From: a virus
Length of the DNA stretch: 47,187 bases
Direction: 5' to 3' (one strand)
IMG/VR virus record: IMGVR_UViG_3300027716_000003
Part shown: piece by piece, positions 1,226 through 47,187 of the stretch
Layout of the letters: the number at the start of each line of letters is the position of its first letter
How positions within the stretch are numbered: the stretch's first letter is position 1
Notes under the pieces: generated by a model
Told to the model about the DNA's origin: nothing
Database searches by the model: none
Seen by the model: the letters and a program-made list of their open reading frames with translations, nothing else
Translations under genes and position numbers: made by a program

Positions 1226-1465
1226 ATGACCCCCAATACCGAACTGACCACCGCGCAGAAACAAGCACTCGTCGCCTACCGCCGCCATTGCGACGAACAC
1301 GACGGCGAGCCCCCGACCGTGCGCTGGCTCGCCGACGCCCTCGGCAAGAGCCCCAACGCCGCCCACCAGCTCATTCAACGCTTGCGAGAGAAAGGTTACC
1401 TGTCGATGAAACCCGTCACCATCATCCGCTCCAAACTCACCGCCAAGGGCAGGGCCGCACGATGA
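1226..1465 (+). CDS. LexA N-terminal-domain-like winged-helix DNA-binding protein (79 aa, no S24 peptidase domain)
   Basis: LTTAQKQALVAY...GEPPTVRWLADALGKSPNAAHQLIQRLREKGYL parallels E. coli LexA (LTARQQEV...[34 protein letters not shown]). Confidence 0.7.
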   Translation: MTPNTELTTAQKQALVAYRRHCDEHDGEPPTVRWLADALGKSPNAAHQLIQRLREKGYLSMKPVTIIRSKLTAKGRAAR

Positions 1466-5803: not shown

Positions 5804-6226
5804 ATGATGAACGGCCTCAATCGCGTGATGCTACTCGGTAACCTCGGCGCCGACCCTGAGCTGCGCATGACGGCAGGCGGGCAAGCCGTGCTCAAGCTGC
5901 GCCTGGCGACCACCGAGAGTTATCTCGACCGTGACAAGGCGCGGCAAGAGCGCACCGAGTGGCATAACGTGGTCGTTTGGGGCAAGCGCGCCGAAGGGCT
6001 CGGCAAGATCCTCGGCAAGGGCGATCGCGTCTGCATCGAGGGGGGGCTCCGCACGAGCAGCTACGAGAAGGACGGCGAGAAGCGCTACAAGACGGAGGTC
6101 GTCGCGACGAATGTCGTTCTTTCGGGTGGCGGCAAGAACGCGTCGCGACCCGCCAAACAGGACGACGCCGAGCCCCCCATGGGGCCCGGCGCCGGTGACT
6201 TCGATGACGATGACATTCCGTTCTAA
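5804..6226 (+). CDS. ssb: Single-stranded DNA-binding protein
   Basis: OB-fold signature NRVMLLGNLGADPELR...TEWHNVVVWGKRAE and acidic tail DFDDDDIPF. Confidence 0.95.
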   Translation: MMNGLNRVMLLGNLGADPELRMTAGGQAVLKLRLATTESYLDRDKARQERTEWHNVVVWGKRAEGLGKILGKGDRVCIEGGLRTSSYEKDGEKRYKTEVVATNVVLSGGGKNASRPAKQDDAEPPMGPGAGDFDDDDIPF

Positions 6227-6444
6227 GTGACGCTCCAAAGGCCGCTCCGGACGGTCTTCGGGACGTCGCGCACGAGACCCTTGCGCTCGAGCGCCAGCAA
6301 GTGGCGGTGGGCGACCTGGCGAGCAATCCCGAGCCGCTCTGCGACGGCGTAACTCGACGGTTGCTCGCCAGCGGCCACCAGGGCGGCCACGGCTTCGAGC
6401 GTCGCCTGCTCGGCGGGCGTCGCCCCCACGGCGGCGCGTCTCAC
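6223..6444 (-). CDS. Winged-helix (MarR/LexA-like) DNA-binding protein (73 aa)
   Basis: SYAVAERLGIARQVAHRHLLALERKGLVRDVP. GTGA-coupled start at 6444. The stop overlaps the ssb stop by 4 nt (convergent). Confidence 0.55.
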   Translation of the reverse strand: MRRAAVGATPAEQATLEAVAALVAAGEQPSSYAVAERLGIARQVAHRHLLALERKGLVRDVPKTVRSGLWSVT

Positions 6445-6713
6445 CGCGCCACCAGCCCGAGCACGAGCAGGACCACGAACGCGAGCGGGGCGAGGAAGAC
6501 CAGGAGCCACACGAGCAGCCAGCACAGGCCCGCCAGGCCCGCCACGGCCTGGAAGGGTAGCAGGAGCCACTCCGCGTCACCGGACGCGTCCAGGGGGCGC
6601 GTAGGGGCCACGGGGGGCAACGGCCGCCGGTAGCCCTCCCACACGTTGCGCAGGAAGAGCACGACCGGCACGCCGCCGACCAAGGCGATCCCAAAGGCCT
6701 GGGAGAGGGTCAC
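6441..6713 (-). CDS. Membrane protein (about 3 TM segments)
   Basis: Hydrophobic runs GIALVGGVPVVLFL and LAGLCWLLVWLLVFLAPLAFVVLLVLGLV. GTGA-coupled start at 6713; an ATG at 6725 is possible. Confidence 0.6.
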   Translation of the reverse strand: MTLSQAFGIALVGGVPVVLFLRNVWEGYRRPLPPVAPTRPLDASGDAEWLLLPFQAVAGLAGLCWLLVWLLVFLAPLAFVVLLVLGLVAR

Positions 6714-8667: not shown

Positions 8668-9054
8668 TCAGCCGTGCACGCGGCCGCGGTACGCCATGAG
8701 GTCGACCGAACCGTATGGCTTGCTTGCTTGCGAGAGACGCTCGCCTCGCTCACCGAGTCCACGGTCCCAAAAGCCCGCGCCGTGCCCATTGCGCGTGAGC
8801 CAGAAGTCATGCCCGCACTGGGATTCATCGAGACCCGCCAAGTCGTCCGCGTTGTCACGCTGGAAAGCTTTGCAGTCGCGGACCATCTCGAGCAGGGTCG
8901 CGCGCGCGATATCCTCGGGCCCGTAATTGTCATCGAGAGGGGCGCCCATGTTCCCATCGGCGTCGCACTCGGTGGAGGACCAGAGTGCGCACTCGATGTA
9001 GCCGGTGGTAAACGAGTCGAGAGAGGCGAGGATGTCAGACTTAGAACGTGCCAT
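8668..9054 (-). CDS. Conserved phage/plasmid protein of unknown function (128 aa)
   Basis: Motifs GYIECALWSS and GHDFWLTRNGHGAGFWD are typical of a widespread family. Family name not verified. Confidence 0.65.
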   Translation of the reverse strand: MARSKSDILASLDSFTTGYIECALWSSTECDADGNMGAPLDDNYGPEDIARATLLEMVRDCKAFQRDNADDLAGLDESQCGHDFWLTRNGHGAGFWDRGLGERGERLSQASKPYGSVDLMAYRGRVHG

Positions 9055-9145
9055 TGGAGTAACCTGGGTTGTTTGGGCGTGAGTGCCCGCCGTGAGTGCC
9101 CGGTAAGAGCCGCGACCGTTGCCAGTCGCGGCGCTTGCCGGAAGC

Positions 9146-9490
9146 TCACCAGCGGTTGTCTGCCGTGATCTCTCGCTGGTAGATCGTTTCGGCGTTCATC
9201 TCGGCCAGCTGAGCCACATCGATGCGACCCGCCAAACGCTCGCAGACGCCCGTTGCCTTGAACGCGCAGAAGTTTGCGAGCGCCCGCATGGCGGCGTCCG
9301 TGGTTTGATTGAAGCGCCGGGCGAACGCAGCGAGCTCACCGCCGTTGGCGCGCGCCTCGAGATCGGCGCCAAGCGCGGCGTAGTTGATCGGCGAGTGCGG
9401 GTCGCTCGGGTCGTTGCGGTTGGCATCGACGAGGGCGGTGAAGTAGGAGCGATCGTAGGGGGCAAGCGTGGCGAATCGGTGGGCTGTCAT
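9146..9490 (-). CDS. Hypothetical protein (114 aa); first gene after the non-coding gap
   Basis: ATG at 9490; ORF-track protein of normal composition. Confidence 0.6.
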   Translation of the reverse strand: MTAHRFATLAPYDRSYFTALVDANRNDPSDPHSPINYAALGADLEARANGGELAAFARRFNQTTDAAMRALANFCAFKATGVCERLAGRIDVAQLAEMNAETIYQREITADNRW

Positions 9491-9734
9491 GACTGGTAAT
9501 CTCGGTTGGATGGCTGAACGGTATGGTGATGGGAGCGAGAAACGGCGGGGGAATCAGTCGAATCTCTGCGCGTTTCGCACTGCCGACTCAGTAATTTTGC
9601 CACGGAGCTAGGTGCTAGGCACCCGTTATCCGAGCTCAGGGCGCAGATAGCTCGCCATTCTGGGACGATCCGGGGGGCAGGGCTGTCCGCTGCCTAAACC
9701 CGGGGCGGCGTCAAGCGGAAAGCGCGGCGCGCAA

Positions 9735-9894
9735 CCACTGAACGCCCTGTGCAACTCCTCAGCTGTTCAGTGCCATGCGCCACTGCTCAGAAGGTGCAGC
9801 TCCTCGAGTGTTCAGTGCTTTCCGTTCAGCTGCGCACTCGCCACTGAACGCGCGACACCTGAACGCGCGGCTGCAGCTCCTCAGGTGTTCAGTG
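9735..9894. promoter_or_regulatory. Repeat array: three 37-39-nt units (9735-9772, 9781-9817, 9856-9894) plus extra half-sites; seven GTTCAG/CTGAAC hexamers in about 155 nt
   Basis: The three units share C(A/C)CTGAACGC..TGCA(A/G)CTCCTC(A/G)(A/G)(C/G)TGTTCAGTG. GTTCAG at 9765, 9810, 9824 and 9887; CTGAAC at 9738, 9844 and 9859. Confidence 0.7.
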
Positions 9895-9920
9895 GTCGCC
9901 GGGTACCCCCTGGCCCCCCA

Positions 9921-9938
9921 CCCCGCCCAGAGGCGGGG
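9921..9938 (-). terminator. GC-rich hairpin (CCCCGCC-N4-GGCGGGG) about 30 nt downstream of the 9968 stop; possible terminator without U-tract
   Basis: Stem read directly. No T-run follows on the minus strand. Confidence 0.3.
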
Positions 9939-9967
9939 CGAACCACCCCATCCCACCGATCTAAAAT

Positions 9968-10201
9968 TTACAACTCGGACCCAGCAGGCCGGACCGGGCC
10001 GTAGACGCGGCAGCTCCGATGCGCCCGCCCGTACTCCCGCATGATGGCGACCGCCATCCCGATAGGCAGCGGGAGCGCCGCCCGGAACACGTCCCCGCAG
10101 TGCATGCAGACCAGCACCATCTGCTCGTCGGGCAACACCATCCACACGCTCCGCGGCGAGCTGTAGTCGTAGACGACGTGGCTGTCCTTCGCCTTGCTCA
10201 T
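9968..10201 (-). CDS. Small Cys-containing protein (77 aa)
   Basis: ATG 10201 overlaps the upstream stop (ATGA). Contains CMHCGD...HRSC. Confidence 0.55.
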   Translation of the reverse strand: MSKAKDSHVVYDYSSPRSVWMVLPDEQMVLVCMHCGDVFRAALPLPIGMAVAIMREYGRAHRSCRVYGPVRPAGSEL

Positions 10202-10365
10202 CGTTCCCGCTCGAAGACCCACCACACCACGCCATGCGCGAGCACCTGCCCGCCCGCGAAGTACATCGCGACCCGCGCAGCCGCTTCCGGGCTCACTGCG
10301 TAGTAGAGGAACAGCAGGAACGCGAGCAGCACGCACTGGACGCGCCATGCCGAGCGGGCGCTCAC
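10198..10365 (-). CDS. 55-aa membrane peptide (not in ORF track)
   Basis: Hand translation VSARSAWRVQCVLLAFLLFLYYAVSPEAAARVAMYFAGGQVLAHGVVWWVFERER. GTGA overlap upstream and ATGA overlap downstream. Confidence 0.5.
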   Translation of the reverse strand: MSARSAWRVQCVLLAFLLFLYYAVSPEAAARVAMYFAGGQVLAHGVVWWVFERER

Positions 10366-10547
10366 TGCGCCTCCCCGTAGAGCGCCGCCGCCACGCGATC
10401 AGCGCACCTCTTGCACTCCGCGCACGTCGCGAGCTGCCGGTCCATCACGGCCACCCACTTGTGCCCCGGTCCCCAGTCCTTCGGCAAGCCGTGGACGCTC
10501 CCGCAGAGCACCCGCCCGTAGAGCAGCACGTGGACCGTGGGACTCAC
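10362..10547 (-). CDS. Small zinc-ribbon-like protein (61 aa)
   Basis: GTGA-coupled. VLLYGRVLCGS...TCAECKRC. Confidence 0.55.
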   Translation of the reverse strand: MSPTVHVLLYGRVLCGSVHGLPKDWGPGHKWVAVMDRQLATCAECKRCADRVAAALYGEAQ

Positions 10548-11584: not shown

Positions 11585-11776
11585 CAGCGCCGACTACCGG
11601 ATCTCGTCCGCAACGGGTAGCTGAACAGACGAACCCTGGGGGGACACCACCGCGGTTTCGGCGATTACGATGCCGTCTGGCGCTCCCGTCTCCGCAGCGT
11701 CGCTCCGCTGGACTTATCTTCTGTCCCGGCCGACGAGAAGTCCATCACTAAGTGACGCCTGAGCAGTGTCATCCGC

Positions 11777-12055
11777 TCAGTGGCTGCCGATGGTCACCCT
11801 CGGATTGCCCTGCAGGTGCCGGAAATGCGCGATGCACAGCCCCACCCCCCGCGCCGTCGTCCACTTCACCGCGCGCCGGCACGGGCCCGGGTAGCTCTCC
11901 CTGAGCATCGACTGATCACGAAGGAAAACCAGCACCCGATGCGGGGTCACCCGCAGGAAAGACGCGATCTCCTTCACGTAAAACCGCTCTCCTTTCGTGG
12001 CCTTCGTCGGAGGGGGCAATACTGAACGTTCGTCACTGGCCGGATGGCGTGCCAT
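11777..12055 (-). CDS. Possible HTH DNA-binding protein (92 aa), divergent from the late operon
   Basis: FYVKEIASFLRVTPHRVLVFLRD is HTH-like. Its 5' end carries the word CTGAACGTTC. Confidence 0.45.
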   Translation of the reverse strand: MARHPASDERSVLPPPTKATKGERFYVKEIASFLRVTPHRVLVFLRDQSMLRESYPGPCRRAVKWTTARGVGLCIAHFRHLQGNPRVTIGSH

Positions 12056-12066
12056 ATTGTCCTCGC

Positions 12067-12498
12067 ATGACGTTCTACCCGACGCCGATGCTCCGAGAAA
12101 TCAACGGGCAGGCCGAGAAAGAGGCCCGCCTCACCCGGATGCTCGAGATCGAGGACGAAATCTACCAGACCGCCGCGGGTATCCTCCACGCGACCCTGGA
12201 TTTCTGTCACGTGACGCCCGATCAGGAGGAGCCCCCCGAGGAATGGGTGGCCCGTTTCGGGGCAGACGCCGCCAAAAAGCGCCTCGCCGTCGCCAAAGCG
12301 GGCTGGCTCCCCCAATCCCTCGGCCCCTCGGGCCCCAAGTACGCCGTCCAGCTCGTCGCCGGCATCTCGCGCGCGCGCCGCATGCAATCCGGGCAGCTCG
12401 GAGCCCCCCGCGAGGTGAACGCCAAGATCGCGCTGCCCGCGCCCACCAGCGCCGGCATGCCCGGAGCCCCCGAATACCCCTCGAAGGAGATCGAGTGA
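12067..12498 (+). CDS. Hypothetical protein (143 aa); first gene of the late operon
   Basis: ATG 12067; the ORF track allows GTG 12049. Confidence 0.55.
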   Translation: MTFYPTPMLREINGQAEKEARLTRMLEIEDEIYQTAAGILHATLDFCHVTPDQEEPPEEWVARFGADAAKKRLAVAKAGWLPQSLGPSGPKYAVQLVAGISRARRMQSGQLGAPREVNAKIALPAPTSAGMPGAPEYPSKEIE

Positions 12499-20239: not shown

Positions 20240-21154
20240 ATGAGTGAGATTTTCACCAGCACCGCGGCGCTCGCGCTGAAGGACACGCTCGAGGACATCG
20301 ACACCGACGAGCACGGGTCCGAGGGCAGCAAGGCCGTCTTCAACAAGTGGTGCACCGTCAAGAACATGACGGACAACTACATCGAATATTACGAGATCGC
20401 CGGCGGCGGTCTCGCGGGTGAGAAGCCCGAGGGCGAGAGCATCCCGGTCGGGACCATCATCGAGGGCCCCCTCACTCGCTTCAACGCGCGCACCTTCGGT
20501 CAGCGAATGATCGTGAGCGAAGAGGCGATGGAGGACATGAAGTACGACAAGGTCATCCAGGCGGCGAAGCGCAACAATCGCTCGCTCTGGAAGCTCGTCG
20601 ACTTCGACGCGACCCTGATGCTGGTCCGCGCCACGAGCACGAGCTACGTCGGCGGCGACGGCCAGCCCCTCGCGAGCACGACCCACGTGCTGCCGGGCGG
20701 CGGCACGTACTCTAATATGTTCCCCTCGGCGCAGTTCTCCCCGAGCAAGGCCGCGCTCGTCATCGCGCAGGCGCAGCTCATGCAGCAGGTCGGCCACGAC
20801 GGGCTCATCGACGGCGTCGAAGCGAAGAAGGCCGTGTTCCCGGTGCAGCAGTGGGGGATCTGGCGCGAGCTGCTCGGTTCGAGCTACGACCCGACCCCGG
20901 GCGCGTTCAACGCGATCAACGTCGTCAACCGCGACATGAACCTGACGCCGGTTCCGGTGAAGTACTGGAACACGACCACGACGAACTGGGGCCTCATCAC
21001 CGATGCGGAGCTCGGCGTGATGTTCTTCTGGCGGCGCAAGCCCAAGAGCAACACGTGGGTCACCGAGGACAAGACGATGATGAACTACGGCATCACCGCG
21101 CGGTGGAGTCGTGGCTGGGTCAACCCGCGCGGCTTCTTCTTCTCGAACGCCTGA
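20240..21154 (+). CDS. Major capsid protein candidate (304 aa)
   Basis: Strong RBS GAGGAAG. Size and position fit the module. HK97 fold not verifiable by eye. Confidence 0.55.
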   Translation: MSEIFTSTAALALKDTLEDIDTDEHGSEGSKAVFNKWCTVKNMTDNYIEYYEIAGGGLAGEKPEGESIPVGTIIEGPLTRFNARTFGQRMIVSEEAMEDMKYDKVIQAAKRNNRSLWKLVDFDATLMLVRATSTSYVGGDGQPLASTTHVLPGGGTYSNMFPSAQFSPSKAALVIAQAQLMQQVGHDGLIDGVEAKKAVFPVQQWGIWRELLGSSYDPTPGAFNAINVVNRDMNLTPVPVKYWNTTTTNWGLITDAELGVMFFWRRKPKSNTWVTEDKTMMNYGITARWSRGWVNPRGFFFSNA

Positions 21155-21166
21155 AGGTCACACGCC

Positions 21167-21247
21167 ATGGCCAAGTCGAAACCCATGCCGGTAGCCAAAC
21201 CGGCGCCCAAGCCCCCGAAGGGCACGAAGAAGGGTAAGGGCTGCTAA
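21167..21247 (+). CDS. Possible 26-aa Lys/Pro-rich peptide
   Basis: GAAGG 9 nt before the ATG. MAKSKPMPVAKPAPKPPKGTKKGKGC. TAATG overlap with the next gene. Confidence 0.25.
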   Translation: MAKSKPMPVAKPAPKPPKGTKKGKGC

Positions 21248-22134
21248 TGAGCACCACTCCGAACTTCGCCGGCAACTTCCTCGGCAACACGTCGCCGTTC
21301 CTCTCGAACTTCGCCGCGGTCGCGAGCCCGTGGGGAACGTTCGTCAAGCCTGGCGGGCGCGTCGCCGCCTACGTGCGCTCGACGGGCGCGCAGGATGGCG
21401 AGGACCACTTCGCCGCCTCGGGCCTGCTCGTCGCGACCATCAACGAAGGGCTCAAGCGCTGCCGCTCCGGGCAGAACGACATCGTGTTCGTGCTGCCCGG
21501 CCACACCGAGACGTACTCGACCACGGGCGCCGTGTGGGCAAACCTGGTGGCAGGCGCGCAGATCATCGGCGTCGGCTCTGCTGGCGCGACGAATGCGCCG
21601 ACGCTGAACCTGACGCACGCGGGCGCGAGCATCGCGCTCAACGTGGCGAACGTCACGCTCGCGGGCTTCAACATCGTGGGCGGCGTCGCGACGGCGACGG
21701 CGTCGATCGTCATCACCGGCGCGGGCGTGACCCTTGCCGGCAACTTCCTGAACTTCAGCGGCTTCGCCCTCGGCGCGAACTCCCCCATCGCGGTAACCGG
21801 CGCGGCAACGTGCTCGATCATCGGCAACAACATCGTTGCCGACTCGACCGCGACGATGATCGCCATCACGGGAGCGGCGAGCACGAACTTTCTCGTGCAA
21901 GGCAACATCGCGCGCCAGGCGCAGGCCACGAGCGGCGGCGGCTTCTCGTCGACGGCAAACACGAGCGGCATCAGCGGCCACTACTCCGACAACTACTTCA
22001 AGACGGCGACGACCTCGACCGGCGGCGCCGGCGTCATCGTGCTCGGGGCAGCCACCATCACCACGGTCGGCAATCACGAGAACTACGGCGGCGAAGAGAC
22101 GGCGGCCGCGAGCCTCCTGGTCACGGGCGCCTGA
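21247..22134 (+). CDS. Right-handed beta-helix repeat protein (pectate-lyase-like fold candidate)
   Basis: Repeated turns of the form NVTLAGFNIVGG, IVITGAGVTLAGNFLNFSG, AVTGAATCSIIGNNIV and IAITGAASTNFLVQGNI. Confidence 0.55.
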   Translation: MSTTPNFAGNFLGNTSPFLSNFAAVASPWGTFVKPGGRVAAYVRSTGAQDGEDHFAASGLLVATINEGLKRCRSGQNDIVFVLPGHTETYSTTGAVWANLVAGAQIIGVGSAGATNAPTLNLTHAGASIALNVANVTLAGFNIVGGVATATASIVITGAGVTLAGNFLNFSGFALGANSPIAVTGAATCSIIGNNIVADSTATMIAITGAASTNFLVQGNIARQAQATSGGGFSSTANTSGISGHYSDNYFKTATTSTGGAGVIVLGAATITTVGNHENYGGEETAAASLLVTGA

Positions 22135-38700: not shown

Positions 38701-38910
38701 ATGGCCAACGCCAAACGCCGCCGCACCCAGGGCACGACCGACGACGACTTTGACATGCTGCTCAGTGCCGCGCTCGCTCAGCTCTTGCCCGCGCGCCACA
38801 TCGCGTCCGGTGACTCCTGGTACTTCCGAGTCGAGGGCTCGGGCGACGAGGCGCAGCTCGTCATCACGCGCTCGCGGGCAAACGTGACCACCCCTGATCC
38901 CGAGTCCTAG
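38701..38910 (+). CDS. Hypothetical protein (69 aa)
   Basis: ORF track. Its stop overlaps the convergent stop of 38907..39482. Confidence 0.45.
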   Translation: MANAKRRRTQGTTDDDFDMLLSAALAQLLPARHIASGDSWYFRVEGSGDEAQLVITRSRANVTTPDPES

Positions 38911-39482
38911 AACTCCTCGGGGTTCAATTCGAGGCAGGGCAGGCGCGAGCAGACGCTGTCGAGCGCCGCCGAGTCGATGACGTCGAGCCGCTCCTTCTGC
39001 CCCGACAGCACGCCGTTCGAGTCGACGTGGTCGCCGCCGAGCGCGTGCCCGAGCTCGTGCGATACAGTGCGCGTGCGCTGCGCGGGGCGGGCGTGCGCGT
39101 TGATCTCGATGCGGTCGCGCTCGGCGCTCGTCACGCCGGGCGCCTCGGAGCCATCCGGGCGCAGGACGCTCGCGACGAGCACGACGGGCACGCCGCCGTC
39201 GGCGACGTAGATGTCACAGCCGGTGGCGACGGCCCAGCGAGCGGCCGCCTCTTCCACGTCGCGCCGCAGAGCCTCGTCGGGACCGAATGCCACGTAGCAG
39301 TACGCCTCGCCGACTTCGGCGTCGGGGGGCGGAGTAGATCGCTCGCTCTGGTGGCTGGTTTTACCCGAGGGAGGGGGGGTACCTTCAGGCTTCTGGCACG
39401 CCAGAGCGAGCGGCAGACTGAGTAACAGACCGAGCGCGCGGGTGGGAAGCACAATCGGAAAGGAACGGCAAGAGGGCGCCAT
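38907..39482 (-). CDS. Secreted/lipoprotein zinc metalloprotease (metzincin-type HExxHxxGxxH)
   Basis: Signal peptide with lipobox-like LSLPLALAC. HELGHALGGDH motif. Opposite strand to its neighbours. Confidence 0.7.
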   Translation of the reverse strand: MAPSCRSFPIVLPTRALGLLLSLPLALACQKPEGTPPPSGKTSHQSERSTPPPDAEVGEAYCYVAFGPDEALRRDVEEAAARWAVATGCDIYVADGGVPVVLVASVLRPDGSEAPGVTSAERDRIEINAHARPAQRTRTVSHELGHALGGDHVDSNGVLSGQKERLDVIDSAALDSVCSRLPCLELNPEEF

Positions 39483-41368: not shown

Positions 41369-41576
41369 GGTCGACCTGCCATTCGAGCACGACGCCCTGT
41401 TCCCCGACGGCGAACTCGTCGTCGAAGGGCGCCGGGTAGACGCCGATCGCCGCATCCGAGGGGATATGGATCCCCTTCGCCTGCGCGATCTCGACGAGCT
41501 CGCGCAGCAGGATGGTGACGGTGACCCTCGTCGTGGTCTTGGACTCGGCCTTCACACGCCACCGATCGCTTTCCAT
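41349..41576 (-). CDS. Hypothetical protein (75 aa)
   Basis: ORF track. Overlaps both neighbours by 20-25 nt. Confidence 0.45.
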   Translation of the reverse strand: MESDRWRVKAESKTTTRVTVTILLRELVEIAQAKGIHIPSDAAIGVYPAPFDDEFAVGEQGVVLEWQVDHAQKQG

Positions 41577-43300
41577 GCGGCGGACGCATCCCAGTCTTCA
41601 TCGTGCAGGTCGTCGCCCTTGTGCCAGAGCTCGAGCGCCGCGCCGAAGCGCATCGCCGCATTGCGCAGGGCATCTCCGATAATCTCCTTCTCGCGCGCGC
41701 CCGGGTCCTGCCCGTTCTTGCTCTGCGCGTTGCCGTAGCCGAGCCGCGTCACGCCGCAGACGGTGAGCTTGATCCAGAGACCGCCGGTCGCGTCGAAGAG
41801 CGGCAGCCCCTTCGGGTCGACGGCCATCGGCTCCCACGTCCACATGGGGTCGGCCTCGAGCAGCCTGTCGGTGAGCGCGGCGTGCCCGACGTAGTCGAGG
41901 TGAATGATGCGCGGGTGGTGCCAGCCGCCGCACACGTTGCAATTGCGCTTCTCGTTCGGCGGGCAGTTGTTCTGCTCCTTCGTGCCTTTCGGCAGCTTGC
42001 TAATCTGATGCTTCTCGAACGGGGCGCGCAGCAGGGCGAGCCCGCGCAAGTTGGCCTTGGCGGGCCCAGGCATGGCCAGGACGGGAGCCGGAGGATTGGG
42101 CACTGCACCGTTCTGTGTAGACGTGATGGTGCGCACGAATGGCGCAGCGGTCTGGGCGGCGCGGGGCTCGCCGAAAGGGATGAACTCCTCCCGCTTTGCC
42201 TTCCGCCACTCCTCCTCGCGCTTCTCCTCCTGCTCGTGCTGCTCGCGTGCCGCGCGGTCGGCGTTGCGCTCGCGCTCGTGCTCGGCACGGGCGGCCGCCT
42301 CCTGGCGCAGGAACTCGTCGGCGCGCGGGTCCTTGCCGATGAGGGGCTCACGCGGCACCGCCCCGCCGCGCGGCCCCTGCTCATACTCGGGCTTGCTCGC
42401 CTGGAAAGCGGGCTCCGCGTCTGCGGCGGCGGCGGCCGCGCTGAGCTCGTGCCGCGAGGGCTCGGGCATGGGCGTGGCGTTGCCCATGAAGCCGTCGAAC
42501 GCGAGCTCGACCTGGGGCGCCATCGTCTCGGCCACCTTCGGCTCGGCGCGCACGAGCAGGGCCTCGGCGTCGAGGTCGAGCTTCGTGTCGAGGGTCGTGA
42601 GCTTGAGCGACAAGACGAGCTGTTCCCAGTTCGCGCGCAGCGACTCCCACACCTTGCCCGAGCCGGTGGCGAGGTGCTCGGCGATGCCCGTCAGCGTCTT
42701 GTGCTCGCCGATGAGGCCGGCGGCTTTGACGGGGCCGATGCCCGGCACGCCCGGCACGTTGTCGCTCTTGTCGCCCGTGAGCGCCAGGAACAAGGGGATC
42801 TGCTCGGGGGTGACCTCGAACTTCTCCTTCACTTCCTTCGGGCCCCGGAAGTATTCGGCGCGCTCGCCGTGCTTGGGGACGAGCTGCAGCACGTTGTCGG
42901 TGACGCACTGAGCGAGATCCTTGTCGGCGCCGACGAGCCAGACCTCCGCCCAGCTCTCGCCGTAGATGCGGGCTAGCGTCGCGATGACGTCGTCGCCTTC
43001 CTTCCCCTTGACGCGCGCCATCGGGTAGCCGCGACTCTTGAGCGCGTCGTAGAGCCAGCGCTTCTGATAGATCTCGGTCGTCTCGGGCTCGACGCGGTTC
43101 GCCTTGTAGTCGGGGAATACTTCCTTGCGATCGTAGGGCGGGTAGTCGAGGCAGAGCACGACGCGGTCGACGCGGGCCGCGACTCGCTCAATCTCGGCGA
43201 GCGTGTTCTGTCCGCCGGCGTTGGGGTTCGCCTCGTAGGTGCGCTTGAAGAGGCAGCCGACGTCGACGAGGGCGATGGTCTTGTTCTGGGGCATGGTCAT
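41552..43300 (-). CDS. Fusion protein: FEN-type 5'-3' exonuclease (PIN+H3TH) + disordered linker + Rad52-like single-strand annealing domain
   Basis: N-terminal: LCLDYPPYDRKEVFPDYKANR, EGDDVIATLA, VGADKDLAQCV, ALTGDKSDNVPGVPGIGPVKAA. C-terminal: LDYVGHAALTDRL...WIKLTVCGVTRLGYG...KEIIGDALRNAAMRFGAALELW parallels the Rad52 core (YIEGH..I...N..FG..GW...V.V.L.DG..HEDVGYG...KEAVTD.LKRALR.FGNALG). Confidence 0.7.
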   Translation of the reverse strand: MTMPQNKTIALVDVGCLFKRTYEANPNAGGQNTLAEIERVAARVDRVVLCLDYPPYDRKEVFPDYKANRVEPETTEIYQKRWLYDALKSRGYPMARVKGKEGDDVIATLARIYGESWAEVWLVGADKDLAQCVTDNVLQLVPKHGERAEYFRGPKEVKEKFEVTPEQIPLFLALTGDKSDNVPGVPGIGPVKAAGLIGEHKTLTGIAEHLATGSGKVWESLRANWEQLVLSLKLTTLDTKLDLDAEALLVRAEPKVAETMAPQVELAFDGFMGNATPMPEPSRHELSAAAAAADAEPAFQASKPEYEQGPRGGAVPREPLIGKDPRADEFLRQEAAARAEHERERNADRAAREQHEQEEKREEEWRKAKREEFIPFGEPRAAQTAAPFVRTITSTQNGAVPNPPAPVLAMPGPAKANLRGLALLRAPFEKHQISKLPKGTKEQNNCPPNEKRNCNVCGGWHHPRIIHLDYVGHAALTDRLLEADPMWTWEPMAVDPKGLPLFDATGGLWIKLTVCGVTRLGYGNAQSKNGQDPGAREKEIIGDALRNAAMRFGAALELWHKGDDLHDEDWDASAAWKAIGGV

Positions 43301-43606: not shown

Positions 43607-43906
43607 TTACCAGCCCGGAACGGGACAGTGGTGATAGAGCGAGCCCTCGGGGGCGGGCCCCGCGCCGGGCTTCCACTCGGGCGGGTAGTAGTCGGGCGCG
43701 TTCGGCCAGGGGTCGAGTATCTCGCAGAGCACGGGGCTGCTCCTGCGCTTGCCGTCCTCGAGCAGCCGCACGCGGGGCGGCTTCTGCCGGAGCTCGAGCG
43801 GCCAGCGCAGACCATCGAGCACGACGAAGAAGACGTCGCCCTTCTTCGCGTACTGGAAGGTCAGGCTCCACGGCACCGGGTGCATGCGCACGGTGGGCGG
43901 CATCAT
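43607..43906 (-). CDS. Hypothetical protein (99 aa)
   Basis: ATGA-coupled start at 43906. Confidence 0.5.
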   Translation of the reverse strand: MMPPTVRMHPVPWSLTFQYAKKGDVFFVVLDGLRWPLELRQKPPRVRLLEDGKRRSSPVLCEILDPWPNAPDYYPPEWKPGAGPAPEGSLYHHCPVPGW

Positions 43907-44151
43907 GTGACCACCTTGAGGTAGCGCAGGTAGTCGCGGCCCGCTTCGGTGAGCGCGAGCCCGCGCGCGATGCGCGGCGTCTTCGTGAGCATGCCCTTGC
44001 GCACGAGGGCGATCACGCTGCAGAAGCCGGTGTGAGGGCTGGTCGTCCCGAAGTGCTTGCCCATCTCCTCGAGCGTCGGGGGGTAGCCGTGCTCGGCGAC
44101 GAACGAGCCGATGAAGCGCAAGACCCGGGCCTGCTTTGGGGTGAGGCTCAC
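43903..44151 (-). CDS. LexA N-terminal-domain-like winged-helix protein (82 aa, no peptidase domain)
   Basis: LTPKQARVLRFIGSFVAEHGYPPTLEEMGKHFGTTSP...LVRKGMLTKTPRIARGLALT parallels the LexA DNA-binding domain. GTGA-coupled. Confidence 0.7.
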   Translation of the reverse strand: MSLTPKQARVLRFIGSFVAEHGYPPTLEEMGKHFGTTSPHTGFCSVIALVRKGMLTKTPRIARGLALTEAGRDYLRYLKVVT

Positions 44152-45278
44152 GCGACCTCCGGGATGGCGCCGCCCGGCGGGACCGGGCCCCACTGCTCGA
44201 GCTGCTCGAGGGTGAGCCTGCCCGTCGGGTCGAAGCCCGCGCGCGCTTGTTTGGCGGCGACGGTGAGCCGCTCGCCGAGCACGTCGCGCCTCGACAGCGG
44301 GGCGGGCAAGGGCTGGGGGTGGTCAGCGAGCACACCTTTCAGCAGAGCCTCGAGCGGGAGCCCGTGCTTGGCCGCGAACGCCCTCTGGCGCGCGTCGGGC
44401 TCGAAGGGCTCCACCGGGAGCGCCGGGCCACGGAAGCCGCTCCTAGGGGCCGTAGCGGCGGAGCGTTGGGCATCCTTCGCCCGGTTCGTCTCCTCCCACG
44501 TTCGCCAGTTGCCGAACTGCTGCCTCACCCACTCGCGTTGATCGCGCACGCCCGACCGCCCGCCGATGCTGGCGAGGTTGCGAGCGGAGGCGAGGCGCTC
44601 GCGGAACCACTCGCGGCTCACGCCGGCGAGCACGGCTTCGTCCTCGAGCCCCGTCTCGTCGAGGCCTTCGAGGTCGTGGAAGCGGCGCACGACGGGGATG
44701 GTGTCGAGCTCTTCGTTATCGAAGCCCTCGCGCGCGGGAGGTACAACAACTTCAGAAGAGGGTTTGGGTTTAGGTTTCGGTTTAGGTGCGTCTACGGTTT
44801 CGCTACTCGCGTCTACGTGTGGACGGGTGTCGACGCGCTCACCGGTCGCGAGGAAGTGATCCTCGGCGTCGTACGGCAGCGGGCCGGTCTCCTCGGGGAA
44901 CGGCAAGGGCAGCTGCTTCGCGCGCTTCTGCTTGGCCCAGTTGCGCTTGCGTGCCTTCTCGGCCTCGCCCTTGGCGCGCTCGCGGTAGGCGACGAAGTTG
45001 ACGATGTGCCAGCCGCGCTCGACCTTGATCGCGCGACGCCCTTCGAAGTCGGGCGTCGAGGAGTAGGGGTCGGGGCTCTCGATGAGAGCGATGGCGGCCT
45101 TCGCCTGGTCGAGGGTGACGCCGGCCTGCTGCGCGACGCCGGGCACGGTGCCGACGACGAAGCCCTCGGGGTCGGCCATGAGCAGGAACCAAATCCAGAC
45201 GCAGCGCGTGGCCGGGTCAGCCGCCCACATGCTGCTCGTGAGGAAGTCGCGGAAGACGGGGGTGTAGGGATGCCTCAT
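44148..45278 (-). CDS. Replication initiation / replisome-organizer-like protein (376 aa)
   Basis: The N-terminal FRDFLTSSMWAADPATRCVWIWFLLMADPEGFV resembles the phage replisome-organizer N-domain. Central PKPKPKPKP linker. Position in the replication block. Confidence 0.45.
   Translation of the reverse strand: MRHPYTPVFRDFLTSSMWAADPATRCVWIWFLLMADPEGFVVGTVPGVAQQAGVTLDQAKAAIALIESPDPYSSTPDFEGRRAIKVERGWHIVNFVAYRERAKGEAEKARKRNWAKQKRAKQLPLPFPEETGPLPYDAEDHFLATGERVDTRPHVDASSETVDAPKPKPKPKPSSEVVVPPAREGFDNEELDTIPVVRRFHDLEGLDETGLEDEAVLAGVSREWFRERLASARNLASIGGRSGVRDQREWVRQQFGNWRTWEETNRAKDAQRSAATAPRSGFRGPALPVEPFEPDARQRAFAAKHGLPLEALLKGVLADHPQPLPAPLSRRDVLGERLTVAAKQARAGFDPTGRLTLEQLEQWGPVPPGGAIPEVA
44761..44837. 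promoter_or_regulatory. Candidate origin region inside the organizer gene: (GGTTTN)x4 followed by GCGTCTACG, GCGTCTACGTGTGGACG and GGTGTCGACGCG
   Basis: Read directly. The 17-mer is 16/17 identical and the 12-mer 12/12 identical to modules at 1009-1047. Confidence 0.4.
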
Positions 45279-45481
45279 CGGGTGGCCCCCTCCGGGGGGC
45301 GCTCGCCGGGTTCGAAGTCGACGAACTGGAAGAGCTGGCGCGCGATCCATGGGTTCTGGCGGAGCTTCTCGAGCGCGCGGTGTTCGAGCTGCTTGACGCG
45401 GTTGGTGGAGATGTGGAGGGCCTTGGCGATCTCGCGCACGGTCATCCCGTCGCGCCGCAGCCAGTCGTGCGCGGTGCTCAC
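45275..45481 (-). CDS. Sigma-70 region 4 / LuxR-type HTH-only protein (68 aa)
   Basis: MTVREIAKALHISTNRVKQLEHRALEKLR matches the region 4.2 pattern. GTGA-coupled start; ATGA-coupled to the organizer gene. Confidence 0.6.
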   Translation of the reverse strand: MSTAHDWLRRDGMTVREIAKALHISTNRVKQLEHRALEKLRQNPWIARQLFQFVDFEPGERPPEGATR

Positions 45482-45681
45482 ATGCCCTCCGGCAGGGGCA
45501 AACCATCCTCCGGCAGGGGCAAACCATCCAGCCTAGCGAGCAGAGTCTCGGCGTGCCGGCGCAGCTCGTCGTTGCTCTGGCGCAGCTCGGCGACCTGCTC
45601 GCGCAGCGCGGTGATGGTGTCGCGCATGACGGCGATGGTGTCGTCGGTGTAGGTGCTTTCGGTTCGGCTGAACTCGGTCAT
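45478..45681 (-). CDS. Coiled-coil protein (67 aa) with duplicated DGLPLPE C-terminus
   Basis: ATGA overlap with the int stop. Helical sequence ALREQVAELRQSNDELRRHAETLLARL. Confidence 0.5.
   Translation of the reverse strand: MTEFSRTESTYTDDTIAVMRDTITALREQVAELRQSNDELRRHAETLLARLDGLPLPEDGLPLPEGM
45488..45529. repeat. Perfect 21-nt tandem duplication TCCGGCAGGGGCAAACCATCC x2
   Basis: Read directly, at 45488-45508 and 45509-45529. Confidence 0.9.
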
Positions 45682-47187
45682 GACTTCCTCCGGCGGGCGT
45701 CGAGTGAGGAGACGTTGTCGGGGGCTACCGCACGTCGGCGCTTGGCGACCTCCAAGAGGGCCGTGGCGGAGTCGAGATCGCCCTCGCTCATCGCCAGGCG
45801 CACGGCGAGCTCGAGGGCCTCGTCGAGGCTGCCGAGTAATGGCCGGGAGTTCTGGCCGGCGGCAGTCGCACCGAGTGGTTTGGCGTCGTTTTCGAGGTCA
45901 CCCGAAACGACTCTTCCATGCGAAAACCCCTTAAAAACAGCTTCGGTCTTGGACTCCGAAGCCAAGGGTCGAAGGTTCGAATCCTTCCGGGCGCGCAGCG
46001 ATATCATTGAGCTTTCTCCTTCCTTGGATACTTTCTCAGACCGAGTTTCGGCCGAGAGCTGGCCAATATTCGGTGAGCCGAAGGTGCTCGCTGGGTGAGC
46101 AGAAGGGGCGATGGTCATCACCTGGCGCTCACCTTCCCGCGACTGACCCGAGGGCAAGAGTCTGCTCGGCACCGCCCCCGCCGGCACCGCGAGCGCCTCC
46201 GTCGGGTTCTGCAGATAGCGGCCGTGGGCGCGCAAGTCGGAGGCGTGCCCCGTCAAGGCCGCGCTCGTCTGCACGTTGACCCCCGCCTTGCCGAGCGCCT
46301 GGCTCCACGCCCGTCGCCAAGAGTGGAAGTCGACGGGCAGCGTGTACTTCGTCTCCTCGAACAGCTCCCGCTCCTTACCCGTCATCGGGCGACCCGGCAC
46401 CCAGCGGCCGACGGGGCCCCTCTGCCCGCGGCCGGCGTCTGGGTCCCAGCGCTCGATACCGAGCGCGCGCCGGAGGTCCTGGCGCATCGCGTGGGCGTGG
46501 CTGTCCTGCGTCTCGCGCAGGCCGCCGGCGCTCTCTCCCCGGAGCAGCGGGAACACCGGACCCTTGCGGGGCCGCCCCTGGTGCACCCACCAGCGATAGA
46601 CGACCGGAGCGAGCCCCTCGGGCACCTCCATGCGCTGGGGCGCCGCGCCCTTCGTGCGGGGCACCCACGCCTCGGCGAACGAGGGCTCTCCGCTCGCGTC
46701 CTCGTCGAGCAGAAAGTTATCCTCCCAGGTCGCGACGTGCAGATCGTTGGTGCGCTCGCCGCCGAGGCAGCGCGCGATGCAGCTCATCGTCTGGCGCATG
46801 AGCACCCCGACGCGGTGCCGGGGCACGGGGTGCTGCCAGGCGAGATACGCGAGCAGGACCTCGTCGCGCGCCACGGCCCGCGTCTTGTCGAGCGTCGCCT
46901 TGAAGAGCGGCATCCGCGCCTTCGGATCGTCCATGGTGGCGAGCCCCGCGCTCTCGAACGTGAACTTGAGCGCCTTTCGGAGATGCTTCACGTGGTCGTC
47001 CGAGTAGCCCCGGCTGCGCTGATCCTCGAGCAGCGCCTTCACTTCGTCCGGGGTGATGGCCGCGATGGGGCGCGCTCCGAATGGCAGTGGGTGGCTCTCG
47101 GTCACGAAGGGGTAGGCGTGGTTTCGAAGGCGCCCCTCCTCGATGTCGACGCGCGAGACCTGGCGCGCCTCTCGCGCTCGGAGCGCG
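45678..47187 (-). CDS. int: Tyrosine integrase, main part (N-terminus continues at 335..1); carries a 178-aa extension after the catalytic Tyr
   Basis: R (GGERTNDL), HSWRR, TGH and HGRYLQ, with the Tyr codon at 46215-46217. The ORF continues to 45678 through the tRNA-like attP core. Confidence 0.9.
   Translation of the reverse strand, partial: ALRAREARQVSRVDIEEGRLRNHAYPFVTESHPLPFGARPIAAITPDEVKALLEDQRSRGYSDDHVKHLRKALKFTFESAGLATMDDPKARMPLFKATLDKTRAVARDEVLLAYLAWQHPVPRHRVGVLMRQTMSCIARCLGGERTNDLHVATWEDNFLLDEDASGEPSFAEAWVPRTKGAAPQRMEVPEGLAPVVYRWWVHQGRPRKGPVFPLLRGESAGGLRETQDSHAHAMRQDLRRALGIERWDPDAGRGQRGPVGRWVPGRPMTGKERELFEETKYTLPVDFHSWRRAWSQALGKAGVNVQTSAALTGHASDLRAHGRYLQNPTEALAVPAGAVPSRLLPSGQSREGERQVMTIAPSAHPASTFGSPNIGQLSAETRSEKVSKEGESSMISLRARKDSNLRPLASESKTEAVFKGFSHGRVVSGDLENDAKPLGATAAGQNSRPLLGSLDEALELAVRLAMSEGDLDSATALLEVAKRRRAVAPDNVSSLDARRRKS
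45949..45995 (+). other. attP core candidate: 3' portion of a tRNA-Arg(CCG)-like sequence (anticodon arm to discriminator), antisense inside int
   Basis: TTGGA/CTCCGAA/GCCAA anticodon arm (anticodon CCG; the 31-39 pair is mismatched), variable GGGTC, T-arm GAAGG-TTCGAAT-CCTTC, and acceptor CGGGCGC plus G. No D-arm and no 5' acceptor GCGCCCG upstream. Confidence 0.7.
47089..47187. repeat. Terminal direct repeat, copy 2 (identical to 1..99)
   Basis: Base-by-base comparison. Confidence 0.95.

Follow-up and report, generated by a model that had tools for sequence, protein, structure and literature searches.

The locus considered here raises the question of what a dense cluster of short repeats, placed in a non-coding gap in the middle of a phage operon, might do. 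The window, that is, the whole stretch of 47,187 nt that was analysed, represents a nearly complete temperate phage genome with a GC content of about 67%, in which terminase and portal genes are present. The following proteins are also encoded:

45678-47105, integrase-like protein
38907-39482, peptidase of the IrrE/ImmA type
41552-43300, exonuclease fused to a strand-annealing protein
5804-6226, SSB, an assignment based on the sequence and on the presence of PF00436 in the syntenic genes of L006 and L027-L029

A polymerase, primase or helicase could not be recognised in the phage. The gap is located in the middle of a leftward (minus-strand) operon, which starts at about 12055, divergently from the late genes, and ends at 6223. 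A comparison with a reference collection of isolated phages revealed no match to the gap DNA or to the portal, and the terminase showed less than 30% identity. The host lineage is probably myxobacterial, namely the Polyangiaceae, an assignment made solely from two binned contigs and from base composition; phages of the Polyangiaceae are essentially unstudied. The first-pass annotation of this DNA proposed that the repeats could be an operator bank, iterons or a set of structured RNA hairpins, and pointed to a resemblance with the LexA box of Myxococcus xanthus.

The repeat array and its composite unit

Across the 47,187-nt window, 36 copies of the hexamer GTTCAG/CTGAAC were counted, whereas shuffled sequences contain 17.6 +/- 4.4; seven of the 36 copies fall within 9738-9892. 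The 29 copies found elsewhere in the window give an expectation of 0.096 per 155 nt, and the Poisson probability of at least seven in the array is about 1e-11, which confirms the original count of seven hexamers where fewer than 0.1 would be expected. The exact 8-mer CACTGAAC is found five times in the 47-kb window, in every case inside 9736-9894, and a repeat finder reported inverted arms as well as a family of three copies (9750-9779, 9795-9824 and 9872-9901). The gap itself (9491-9967) displays no codon-position GC bias, in support of the initial view that it contains no convincing ORF; the minus-strand genes flanking it, 9146-9490 (114 aa) and 9968-10201 (77 aa), have GC3 values of 0.8-0.96.

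The repeats are organised into a composite unit of 37-38 bp, CACTGAAC-N4-GAGGAG-YKKCAC-N5/6-GTTCAGTG, which is accompanied by orphan 8-mers. The three units and the extra GTTCAG-N14-CTGAAC pair that had been described from the letters of the sequence were both recovered, the former at 9736-9772, 9781-9817 and 9856-9894 and the latter at 9824-9849. Read along the gene strand, the array consists of the following elements:

9856-9894, minus strand, unit 1, the N6 variant, CACTGAAC-ACCT-GAGGAG-CTGCAG-CCGCGC-GTTCAGGTG
9841-9853, minus strand, orphan half-site GCGCGTTCAGTGG, 15 nt past the 3' arm of unit 1
9822-9832, minus strand, orphan half-site CAGCTGAACGG
9781-9817, minus strand, unit 2 with a variant 3' arm, CACTGAAC-ACTC-GAGGAG-CTGCAC-CTTCT-GAGCAGTG
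9736-9772, minus strand, unit 3, a perfect match to the consensus, CACTGAAC-AGCT-GAGGAG-TTGCAC-AGGGC-GTTCAGTG

Homologues of the 114-aa protein are encoded on metagenomic contigs, each with a non-coding gap of 395-760 nt upstream. A scan with the pattern CACTGAACNNNNGAGGAGN{11,12}GTTCAG retrieved seven contigs of IMG/VR as well as two that had been binned in Polyangiaceae MAGs, while a pattern for block A, a conserved element described below, added one contig, and contigs carrying a 79-aa winged-helix (wHTH) protein added three. Two further matches, one to the repeat pattern in a Gemmatimonadota genome (L024) and one block-A-like (L026), lie inside genes and were rejected as chance. IMG/VR scans seeded with both flanking proteins gave no match, and a profile scan found nothing among genome contigs and, among metagenome contigs, one distant locus that lacks the array.

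In all, 19 distinct versions of the gap share the conserved array; they belong to related metagenomic phages, so that the conservation counts are not independent; the order of the elements is the same in all 19 versions, although the neighbouring 114-aa protein is only 65-83% identical. The possibility that the repeats are missing or unconserved in relatives, which had been raised at the outset, was looked at, and the repeats are kept in these versions. The array is real, non-random and under selection.

From 30 units (27 distinct sequences) at 15 loci, the consensus CACTGAAC-A-N3-GAGGAG-C-(TG|GT)-CAC-N5(6)-GTTCAGTG was derived, and among 24 distinct units of 37 nt, 16 of the 37 positions are invariant. 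Unit 1 has identical copies in L009 and L020. A direct pair of GTTCAGT copies, 14-15 nt apart, follows unit 1 and is present in the window and in L001, L003, L006, L009, L020 and L021. Orphan arms of the form YGTTCAGTR, as well as the variants GAGCAGTG and GCGCAGTG, are located between or beside the units. The arm of unit 2 that had been called degenerate, GAGCAGTG on the gene strand, is a recurrent conserved variant in relatives, where it also occurs in L009, L020, L021 and L025.

The orientation of the unit is not fixed. Two of the three units of L011 are reversed as a whole relative to the genes, whole units are also reversed in L023, and degenerate units are likewise reversed in L022 and L027. 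Most hexamers of L003 and L001 are direct repeats without a partner. A covariation analysis in relatives, which had been suggested as a check, found the arms to be conserved and not covarying: among the 27 distinct units, a compensatory change was seen at stem pair 1 alone (two units), and six distinct unit sequences carry an uncompensated break at arm pairs 6-7, of which five represent the conserved GAGCAGTG variant and one represents GTCCAGTG. The arms are probably recognised as sequence, not as a stem.

Multi-hairpin regulatory RNAs of the CsrB/RsmZ type carry GGA or Shine-Dalgarno-like motifs in their loops. If the array were a structured RNA, the units would be hairpins of the early transcript or of a small RNA, whose GAGGAG loops could operate as a CsrA-type or Shine-Dalgarno-mimic sponge, or the hairpins could act as antitermination or processing signals. 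An 8-bp stem is possible in each unit, the gene strand can be drawn as tandem stem-loops that place GAGGAG in the loop, and the folding of the region is better than that of shuffled sequences (z = -3.0 for the gene strand and -3.2 for the other). However, z-scores that are equal on both strands are as for DNA palindromes, and the units flipped in L011, L023, L022 and L027 turn the GAGGAG loops into CUCCUC. The pair-1 compensation in two of 27 units is set against six uncompensated breaks, and the partnerless direct repeats of L003 and L001 also speak against a stem. A search of Rfam at a permissive threshold yielded only chance hits, none below E = 1, for 9000-10500, and neither a terminator nor a sigma-70 promoter brackets the array in a generic scan. 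Conservation of the arms without covariation and the flipping of units in relatives argue that the array is read as DNA and not as a strand-specific RNA, and a structured RNA is highly improbable. Hairpins in read-through RNA, or cruciforms at the DNA level, could still arise from the inverted arms.

Several other identities were tried for the array and rejected. A CRISPR array does not fit unit spacings of 45 and 77 nt with a shared inner sequence, and a scan for tRNA and tmRNA found none. For genome ends or a packaging site, contigs do break nearby, at differing positions, and these are therefore probably repeat-induced assembly breaks. The units are too short for integron attC sites (RYYYAAC...GTTRRRY), and an integron integrase is absent; a promoter for an ECF sigma factor (TGAAC...CGTC) would have a spacing of just 10 nt.

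Promoter-like module and operon start

The array is one part of a longer control region, whose elements follow each other on the gene strand in the order junction motif, block A, array, spacer, box, 17 nt, palindrome, 11 nt, hexamer and leader. The elements outside the array are as follows:

9952-9969, minus strand, AT-rich junction motif AAATTTTAGATCGGTGGG, which overlaps the 77-aa gene upstream at its stop codon
9899-9944, minus strand, block A, composed of invariant GGTTCGCCCC, a G- or C-rich stretch and invariant GGGGGTACCCGG
9642-9657, minus strand, conserved box TGGCGAGCTATCTGCG (YGGCGAGC-W-R-W-S-TGC), the sole exact copy in the window
9611-9623, minus strand, palindrome GGTGC-cta-GCACC, in a fixed position in 14 versions
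9594-9599, minus strand, candidate -10 hexamer CAAAAT, preceded by TGG (extended -10)
9488-9505, minus strand, ribosome-binding region and ATG of the 114-aa gene (9146-9490)

The junction motif AAATTTTAGATCGGTGGG has one copy in the window and keeps its position in relatives; in L018, L020 and L021 it is repeated ahead of other small early genes. Block A is present in all 19 versions, its GGTTCGCCCC and GGGGGTACCCGG columns are invariant in a 7-way alignment, and the array begins 13-21 nt past it. Three identities of block A were rejected: a terminator hairpin (the fold is inconsistent and a U-tract is absent), a G-quadruplex (roughly half of the versions have a G4-type motif, which may lie on one strand or the other) and a small ORF (the frame is not conserved with respect to the invariant bases).

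The spacer between the array and the box varies from 17 to 278 nt among versions. From the box onwards the geometry is fixed. The box lies exactly 17 nt ahead of the palindrome in 14 versions, with GGCG invariant and TGC retained in 12-13 of 14. The palindrome of L011 reads CATGC-gcc-GCATG, with both arms altered together. The candidate -10 hexamer follows exactly 11 nt past the palindrome, with A at position 2 in 13 of 14 versions and T at position 6 in 12 of 14; TGG precedes the TAGGAT-like hexamer in every case where position 1 is not T, and the hexamer is retained in L006 and L019 despite the degenerate palindrome there. Transcription would start near 9585-9588. The hexamer is followed by a leader of about 95 nt and then by a ribosome-binding site and ATG. 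The first gene 3' of the control region differs among phages, which indicates that this region belongs to the head of a transcription unit and not to one gene.

An A kept at position 2, a T kept at position 6, a fixed place and an optional extended TG are features of a sigma-70-type -10 element, and the hexamer has them. A generic scan of 9300-10200 for promoters and terminators returned none, and the -35 is poor. We favour a sigma-70-type promoter over a sigma-54 one as the probable identity of the module; the palindrome can then be read as lying over the -35 region, and the box, centred near -61, as a regulator site. Both promoter types are nevertheless candidates, since the box also fits a sigma-54 -24/-12 element.

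If YGGCGAG-N4-STGCW is taken as the -24/-12 element, the array would be an enhancer (an upstream activating sequence) in which a host AAA+ enhancer-binding protein (EBP), bound to the 8-bp half-sites, turns on the distal early genes through looping of the DNA. GG-N10-GC is retained in 12 of the 14 fixed-register versions, and, according to version, the box agrees with the consensus TGGCACG-N4-TTGC(T/A) (PMC9765219) at 8-9 of its 12 specified positions. Putative sigma-54 promoters of M. xanthus include the similarly deviant GGGCGCG-N4-TTGCA, and its EBP targets, such as those of Nla28, have two to five eight-bp half-sites located upstream at variable spacing (PMC9765219). The array is comparable to these in its 8-bp half-sites, in their variable spacing and distance and in its position upstream of GG-N10-GC, and, like that of an enhancer, its arrangement is not tied to any one orientation, number or distance. 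The palindrome, in which L011 shows paired changes, would give the RNA a 5'-terminal hairpin.

Several features make this enhancer unlikely. The -24/-12 element is imperfect: positions -22/-21 deviate in all versions (GA, not AC), and the GG-N10-GC register is broken in three relatives, the GC being shifted by one base in L019 and L023 and replaced by AC in L001. The sigma-70-type -10 just downstream, 41 nt from the box, is conserved at least as well and is kept in L019 in spite of the broken sigma-54 spacing there. The half-sites do not resemble the Nla28 site in sequence, and no match to an EBP family was found among the scanned proteins of the window, which include all GC3-supported ORFs of at least 250 aa apart from 20240-21154 and 21247-22134 in the structural module. 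The fifth point concerns the start of the operon, where a lone copy of the array-type 8-mer stands without a neighbouring box:

12020-12038, minus strand, lone array-type 8-mer at the early operon start, TACTGAAC on the plus strand and CAGTGACGAACGTTCAGTA on the gene strand

The 8-mer [CT]ACTGAAC is found six times in 47 kb, comprising the five copies of the array and this one at 12020-12027. The roughly 75 nt in which it lies hardly vary among ten phages, nine of which keep GTTCAGTA, though the overlapping protein is just 50-90% identical. In three more loci of 20 kb, the 8-mer is again limited to the early operon. It is the site at 12022-12038 that the first-pass annotation had singled out as one of its best LexA-box matches. 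The simplest reading is that one regulator would act both at the operon start and on a bank about 2 kb inside the operon.

Iterons are the repeats of a phage replication origin that an initiator binds. Lambda ori and P4 ori/crr, the latter with octamer repeats, are phage origins that use such repeats. As in these, a short motif recurs in the array in either orientation, within non-coding DNA of the early region, and a phage in which no polymerase, primase or helicase can be recognised needs an origin able to recruit the host machinery. Against this, no AT-rich unwinding element lies beside the array (GC is 0.64 in 9001-10000), the array spacings of 14-15, 29-30, 45 and 77 nt are out of helical phase, and no initiator-like gene adjoins it, the neighbouring proteins matching no replication family. 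The array is, moreover, coupled to a promoter-like module of fixed geometry, and its 8-mer also occurs at the operon start. Iterons therefore appear very doubtful.

Resemblance to LexA boxes and candidate binding proteins

The M. xanthus LexA box, given in the first-pass annotation as CTRHAMRYBYGTTCAGS, matches the published consensus, and its real boxes include CTACACGTCTGTTCAGG (lexA) and CTAAAAGCGCGTTCAGG (recA2) (PMC9705874). GTTCAG/CTGAAC is the strong half of this SOS box, as had been noticed. The accompanying statement that no copy is a full box also holds: a scan of the window found no copy of the imperfect 17-nt palindrome with at most about one mismatch, and the array sites have three mismatches at best. 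With up to three mismatches allowed, the 17-mer has 17 matches in the window against 14.9 expected, for a consensus that may not be that of the host.

The half-site spacing is different as well. The arms are separated by N21/22 within units and by N14 in the extra pair, in contrast to the N4 of the M. xanthus box, the flanking base in the array is T as against G/C, and the inner GAGGAG-YKKCAC is an addition. Each unit can be described as two back-to-back pseudo-boxes that share perfect outer halves, namely CTCCTC-N4-GTTCAGTG, in which the inner half is poor, and CTGCAC-N5/6-GTTCAGTG, in which the inner half fits and the spacer is 1-2 nt long. With no full box, and with pseudo-boxes that are poor or wrongly spaced, binding by a LexA of the M. 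xanthus type is unlikely.

A LexA of the Polyangiaceae host might still use the units as operators made of strong and weak half-sites, which would link the distal early genes to the SOS response. In favour of this, the hexamer is the strong half of the sole defined myxobacterial SOS box, the inner CTGCAC fits CTRHAM, and two contigs with the array are binned in Polyangiaceae MAGs. On the other hand, the M. xanthus box matches at chance level, and even at the best array sites either 3-4 bases mismatch or the spacer exceeds the proper length by 1-2 nt, whereas the recN box of M. xanthus, with two mismatches, is not bound by LexA (PMC9705874). The base that follows GTTCAG is mostly T and not S, and the sites stay clear of the candidate core promoter, the array being upstream of it and not over it. 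Control by the host LexA is thus quite improbable.

The phage encodes LexA-like proteins of its own:

1226-1465, plus strand, winged-helix protein similar to the LexA N-terminal domain, with no cleavage/peptidase domain
43903-44193, minus strand, protein of the same kind
6223-6570, minus strand, protein of the same kind

These three wHTH proteins, which had already been mentioned as candidates, all match the LexA DNA-binding domain (LexA_DNA_bind in Pfam, with E-values of 1e-10, 8e-15 and 2e-5). The 79-aa wHTH protein aligns with this domain over residues 7-63, including the KSPNAA that starts the recognition helix. It is conserved in the phages of this family and is one of a large group of related stand-alone proteins, each about 80 aa long. 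When the phage wHTH was used as the seed of protein searches, only phage-type 80-aa proteins and LexA of Chlorobiota and other unrelated phyla were retrieved.

A homologue of the 79-aa protein and the array share a contig in all six checkable cases (the window, the contigs of L016 and L020, and L027-L029). The last gene of the array operon is a second LexA-like gene in the window, L006, L010, L017 and L019. On the strength of this co-occurrence and of the half-site likeness, we infer that the three LexA-like wHTH proteins are the best candidate binders. The recognition helices differ among the three paralogues, which would suit a composite site with several conserved motifs. The connection with LexA is one of half-site resemblance, not of membership.

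A putative regulatory bank within the early operon

On balance, the array is probably a cis-regulatory bank that operates at the DNA level, binding sequence-specific proteins and controlling an internal early promoter, with the wHTH proteins as the likeliest binders. Among the three options offered at the outset, the operator bank stands, given the lack of covariation, the flipped units, the module downstream and the 8-mer at the operon start, while hairpins and iterons are disfavoured. The proteins would bind the two outer 8-bp arms (CACTGAAC/GTTCAGTG) and the asymmetric inner GAGGAG-YKKCAC, and the orphan arms between the units would form part of the bank. The resulting complex, located 20-330 bp upstream of the promoter module of fixed geometry, would set the expression of the distal early genes (from 9490 to about 6223). 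It may do so by blocking or repression, possibly together with the single 8-mer found 2.1 kb upstream, where the operon starts, or by activation of the internal promoter. Simple occlusion is not the mechanism, since array-type sites never overlap the candidate core promoter.

Operator banks and distant cooperating sites are found in temperate phages, as in OR/OL of lambda and the flanking sites of coliphage 186, and mycobacteriophage L5 carries 'stoperators'. The array resembles these systems in that several copies of a short motif are confined to the early region, with a single site where the operon starts and a cluster in the operon some 2 kb downstream of it, and in that the phage, which encodes an integrase and an IrrE/ImmA-like peptidase, is temperate. 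It differs from them in its unit, a composite of 37-38 bp with arms far apart instead of a dyad of 14-17 bp, and in its regulator candidates, which are similar to the LexA N-terminal domain and not of the CI/Cro type; unlike the L5 stoperators, the unit is free in its orientation. The array would be a familiar kind of phage regulatory element, in which the composite, invertible unit is unusual.

A more speculative proposal, to which we give a modest chance, is that the phage family has built a private code from the SOS code of its host, with LexA-like paralogues (three per genome, lacking the cleavage domain and each with its own recognition helix) reading the strong half-site of the host LexA along with the inner motifs of a new, orientation-free composite operator of 37 bp. 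If so, the host LexA and its phage mimics would compete or cooperate on the same DNA, and the distal early genes would be gated independently of RecA-mediated cleavage. Binding by the LexA-like proteins would mean that the phage reuses the half-site of the host SOS system in a different architecture; if they do not bind, the array would be an ordinary operator or enhancer bank of a phage. Among the non-coding features of the family, the control region is the most conserved, and it provides an entry point into the regulation of these phages through a 37-bp site, three small candidate binders and a predicted internal promoter.

Divergent early and late operon starts

The leftward early operon (about 12055 to 6223) and the late genes diverge from a region that carries the first of two conserved elements considered here.

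About 12015-12090: near-invariant DNA stretch of approximately 75 nt around the starts from which the early and late operons diverge
11642-11665, minus strand: ATCGCCGAAACCGCGGTGGTGTCC, within the non-coding gap 11585-11776, the early operon's second conserved non-coding element

Across ten phages the DNA of the first stretch is almost constant, while the protein that overlaps it is merely 50-90% identical, and the stretch holds one 8-mer of the type found in the GTTCAG/CTGAAC repeat array ([CT]ACTGAAC). This region probably acts as the main control region for the early and late genes. Near-identical copies of ATCGCCGAAACCGCGGTGGTGTCC, reading GAATCGCCGAAACCGCGGCGGTGTCC, occur in three loci of related uncultured metagenomic phages (L011, L015 and L017).

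Small LexA-like and sigma-like proteins

Three paralogous stand-alone proteins with a LexA DNA-binding domain are encoded in the window, and a sigma-70-like protein is encoded in some of the relatives.

1226-1465, plus strand: LexA-DNA-binding-domain protein
43903-44193, minus strand: LexA-DNA-binding-domain protein
6223-6570, minus strand: LexA-DNA-binding-domain protein
L027-L029, about 6.3-7.2 kb: protein of 67-68 aa matching sigma-70 region 4 (PF04545), encoded in the operon on the integrase side

The recognition helices of the three window paralogues differ from one another, and all three lack the S24 peptidase domain. The 79-aa LexA-like type belongs to a large metagenome family whose members are around 80 aa long. 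The window's 67-aa ORF at 45478-45681, which adjoins the integrase gene, gave weak coiled-coil matches only.

Sequences flanking the repeat array

Two elements lie upstream of the array on the gene strand, and an insert adjoins them in one relative.

9899-9944, minus strand: block A, GGTTCGCCCC...GGGGGTACCCGG, unchanged in all 19 versions of the array-bearing gap
9952-9969, minus strand: AT-rich junction motif TAAATTTYAG.T.G.TGGG, also in L018, L020 and L021
L021, about 225-310 of the locus region: tRNA-like insert directly upstream of block A

Between GGTTCGCCCC and GGGGGTACCCGG, the middle of block A is rich in G in certain phages and in C in the others, with a G4-type motif on one or other strand; a consistent hairpin was sought across the versions and none was found. 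Independent assemblies of four relatives (L010, L014, L016 and L018) end at differing positions within some 100-330 nt of the array. The repeats probably caused these breaks during assembly, and the contig ends are then not physical ends of the genomes.

The junction motif recalls sequences of mosaic phage genomes that are start-associated or mark boundaries; relatives carry it where several of their small early genes end. The tRNA-like insert of L021 (GGGGTAGCTCAG...GGTTCGAATCC...), seen in this relative only, has a copy of the motif on each side.
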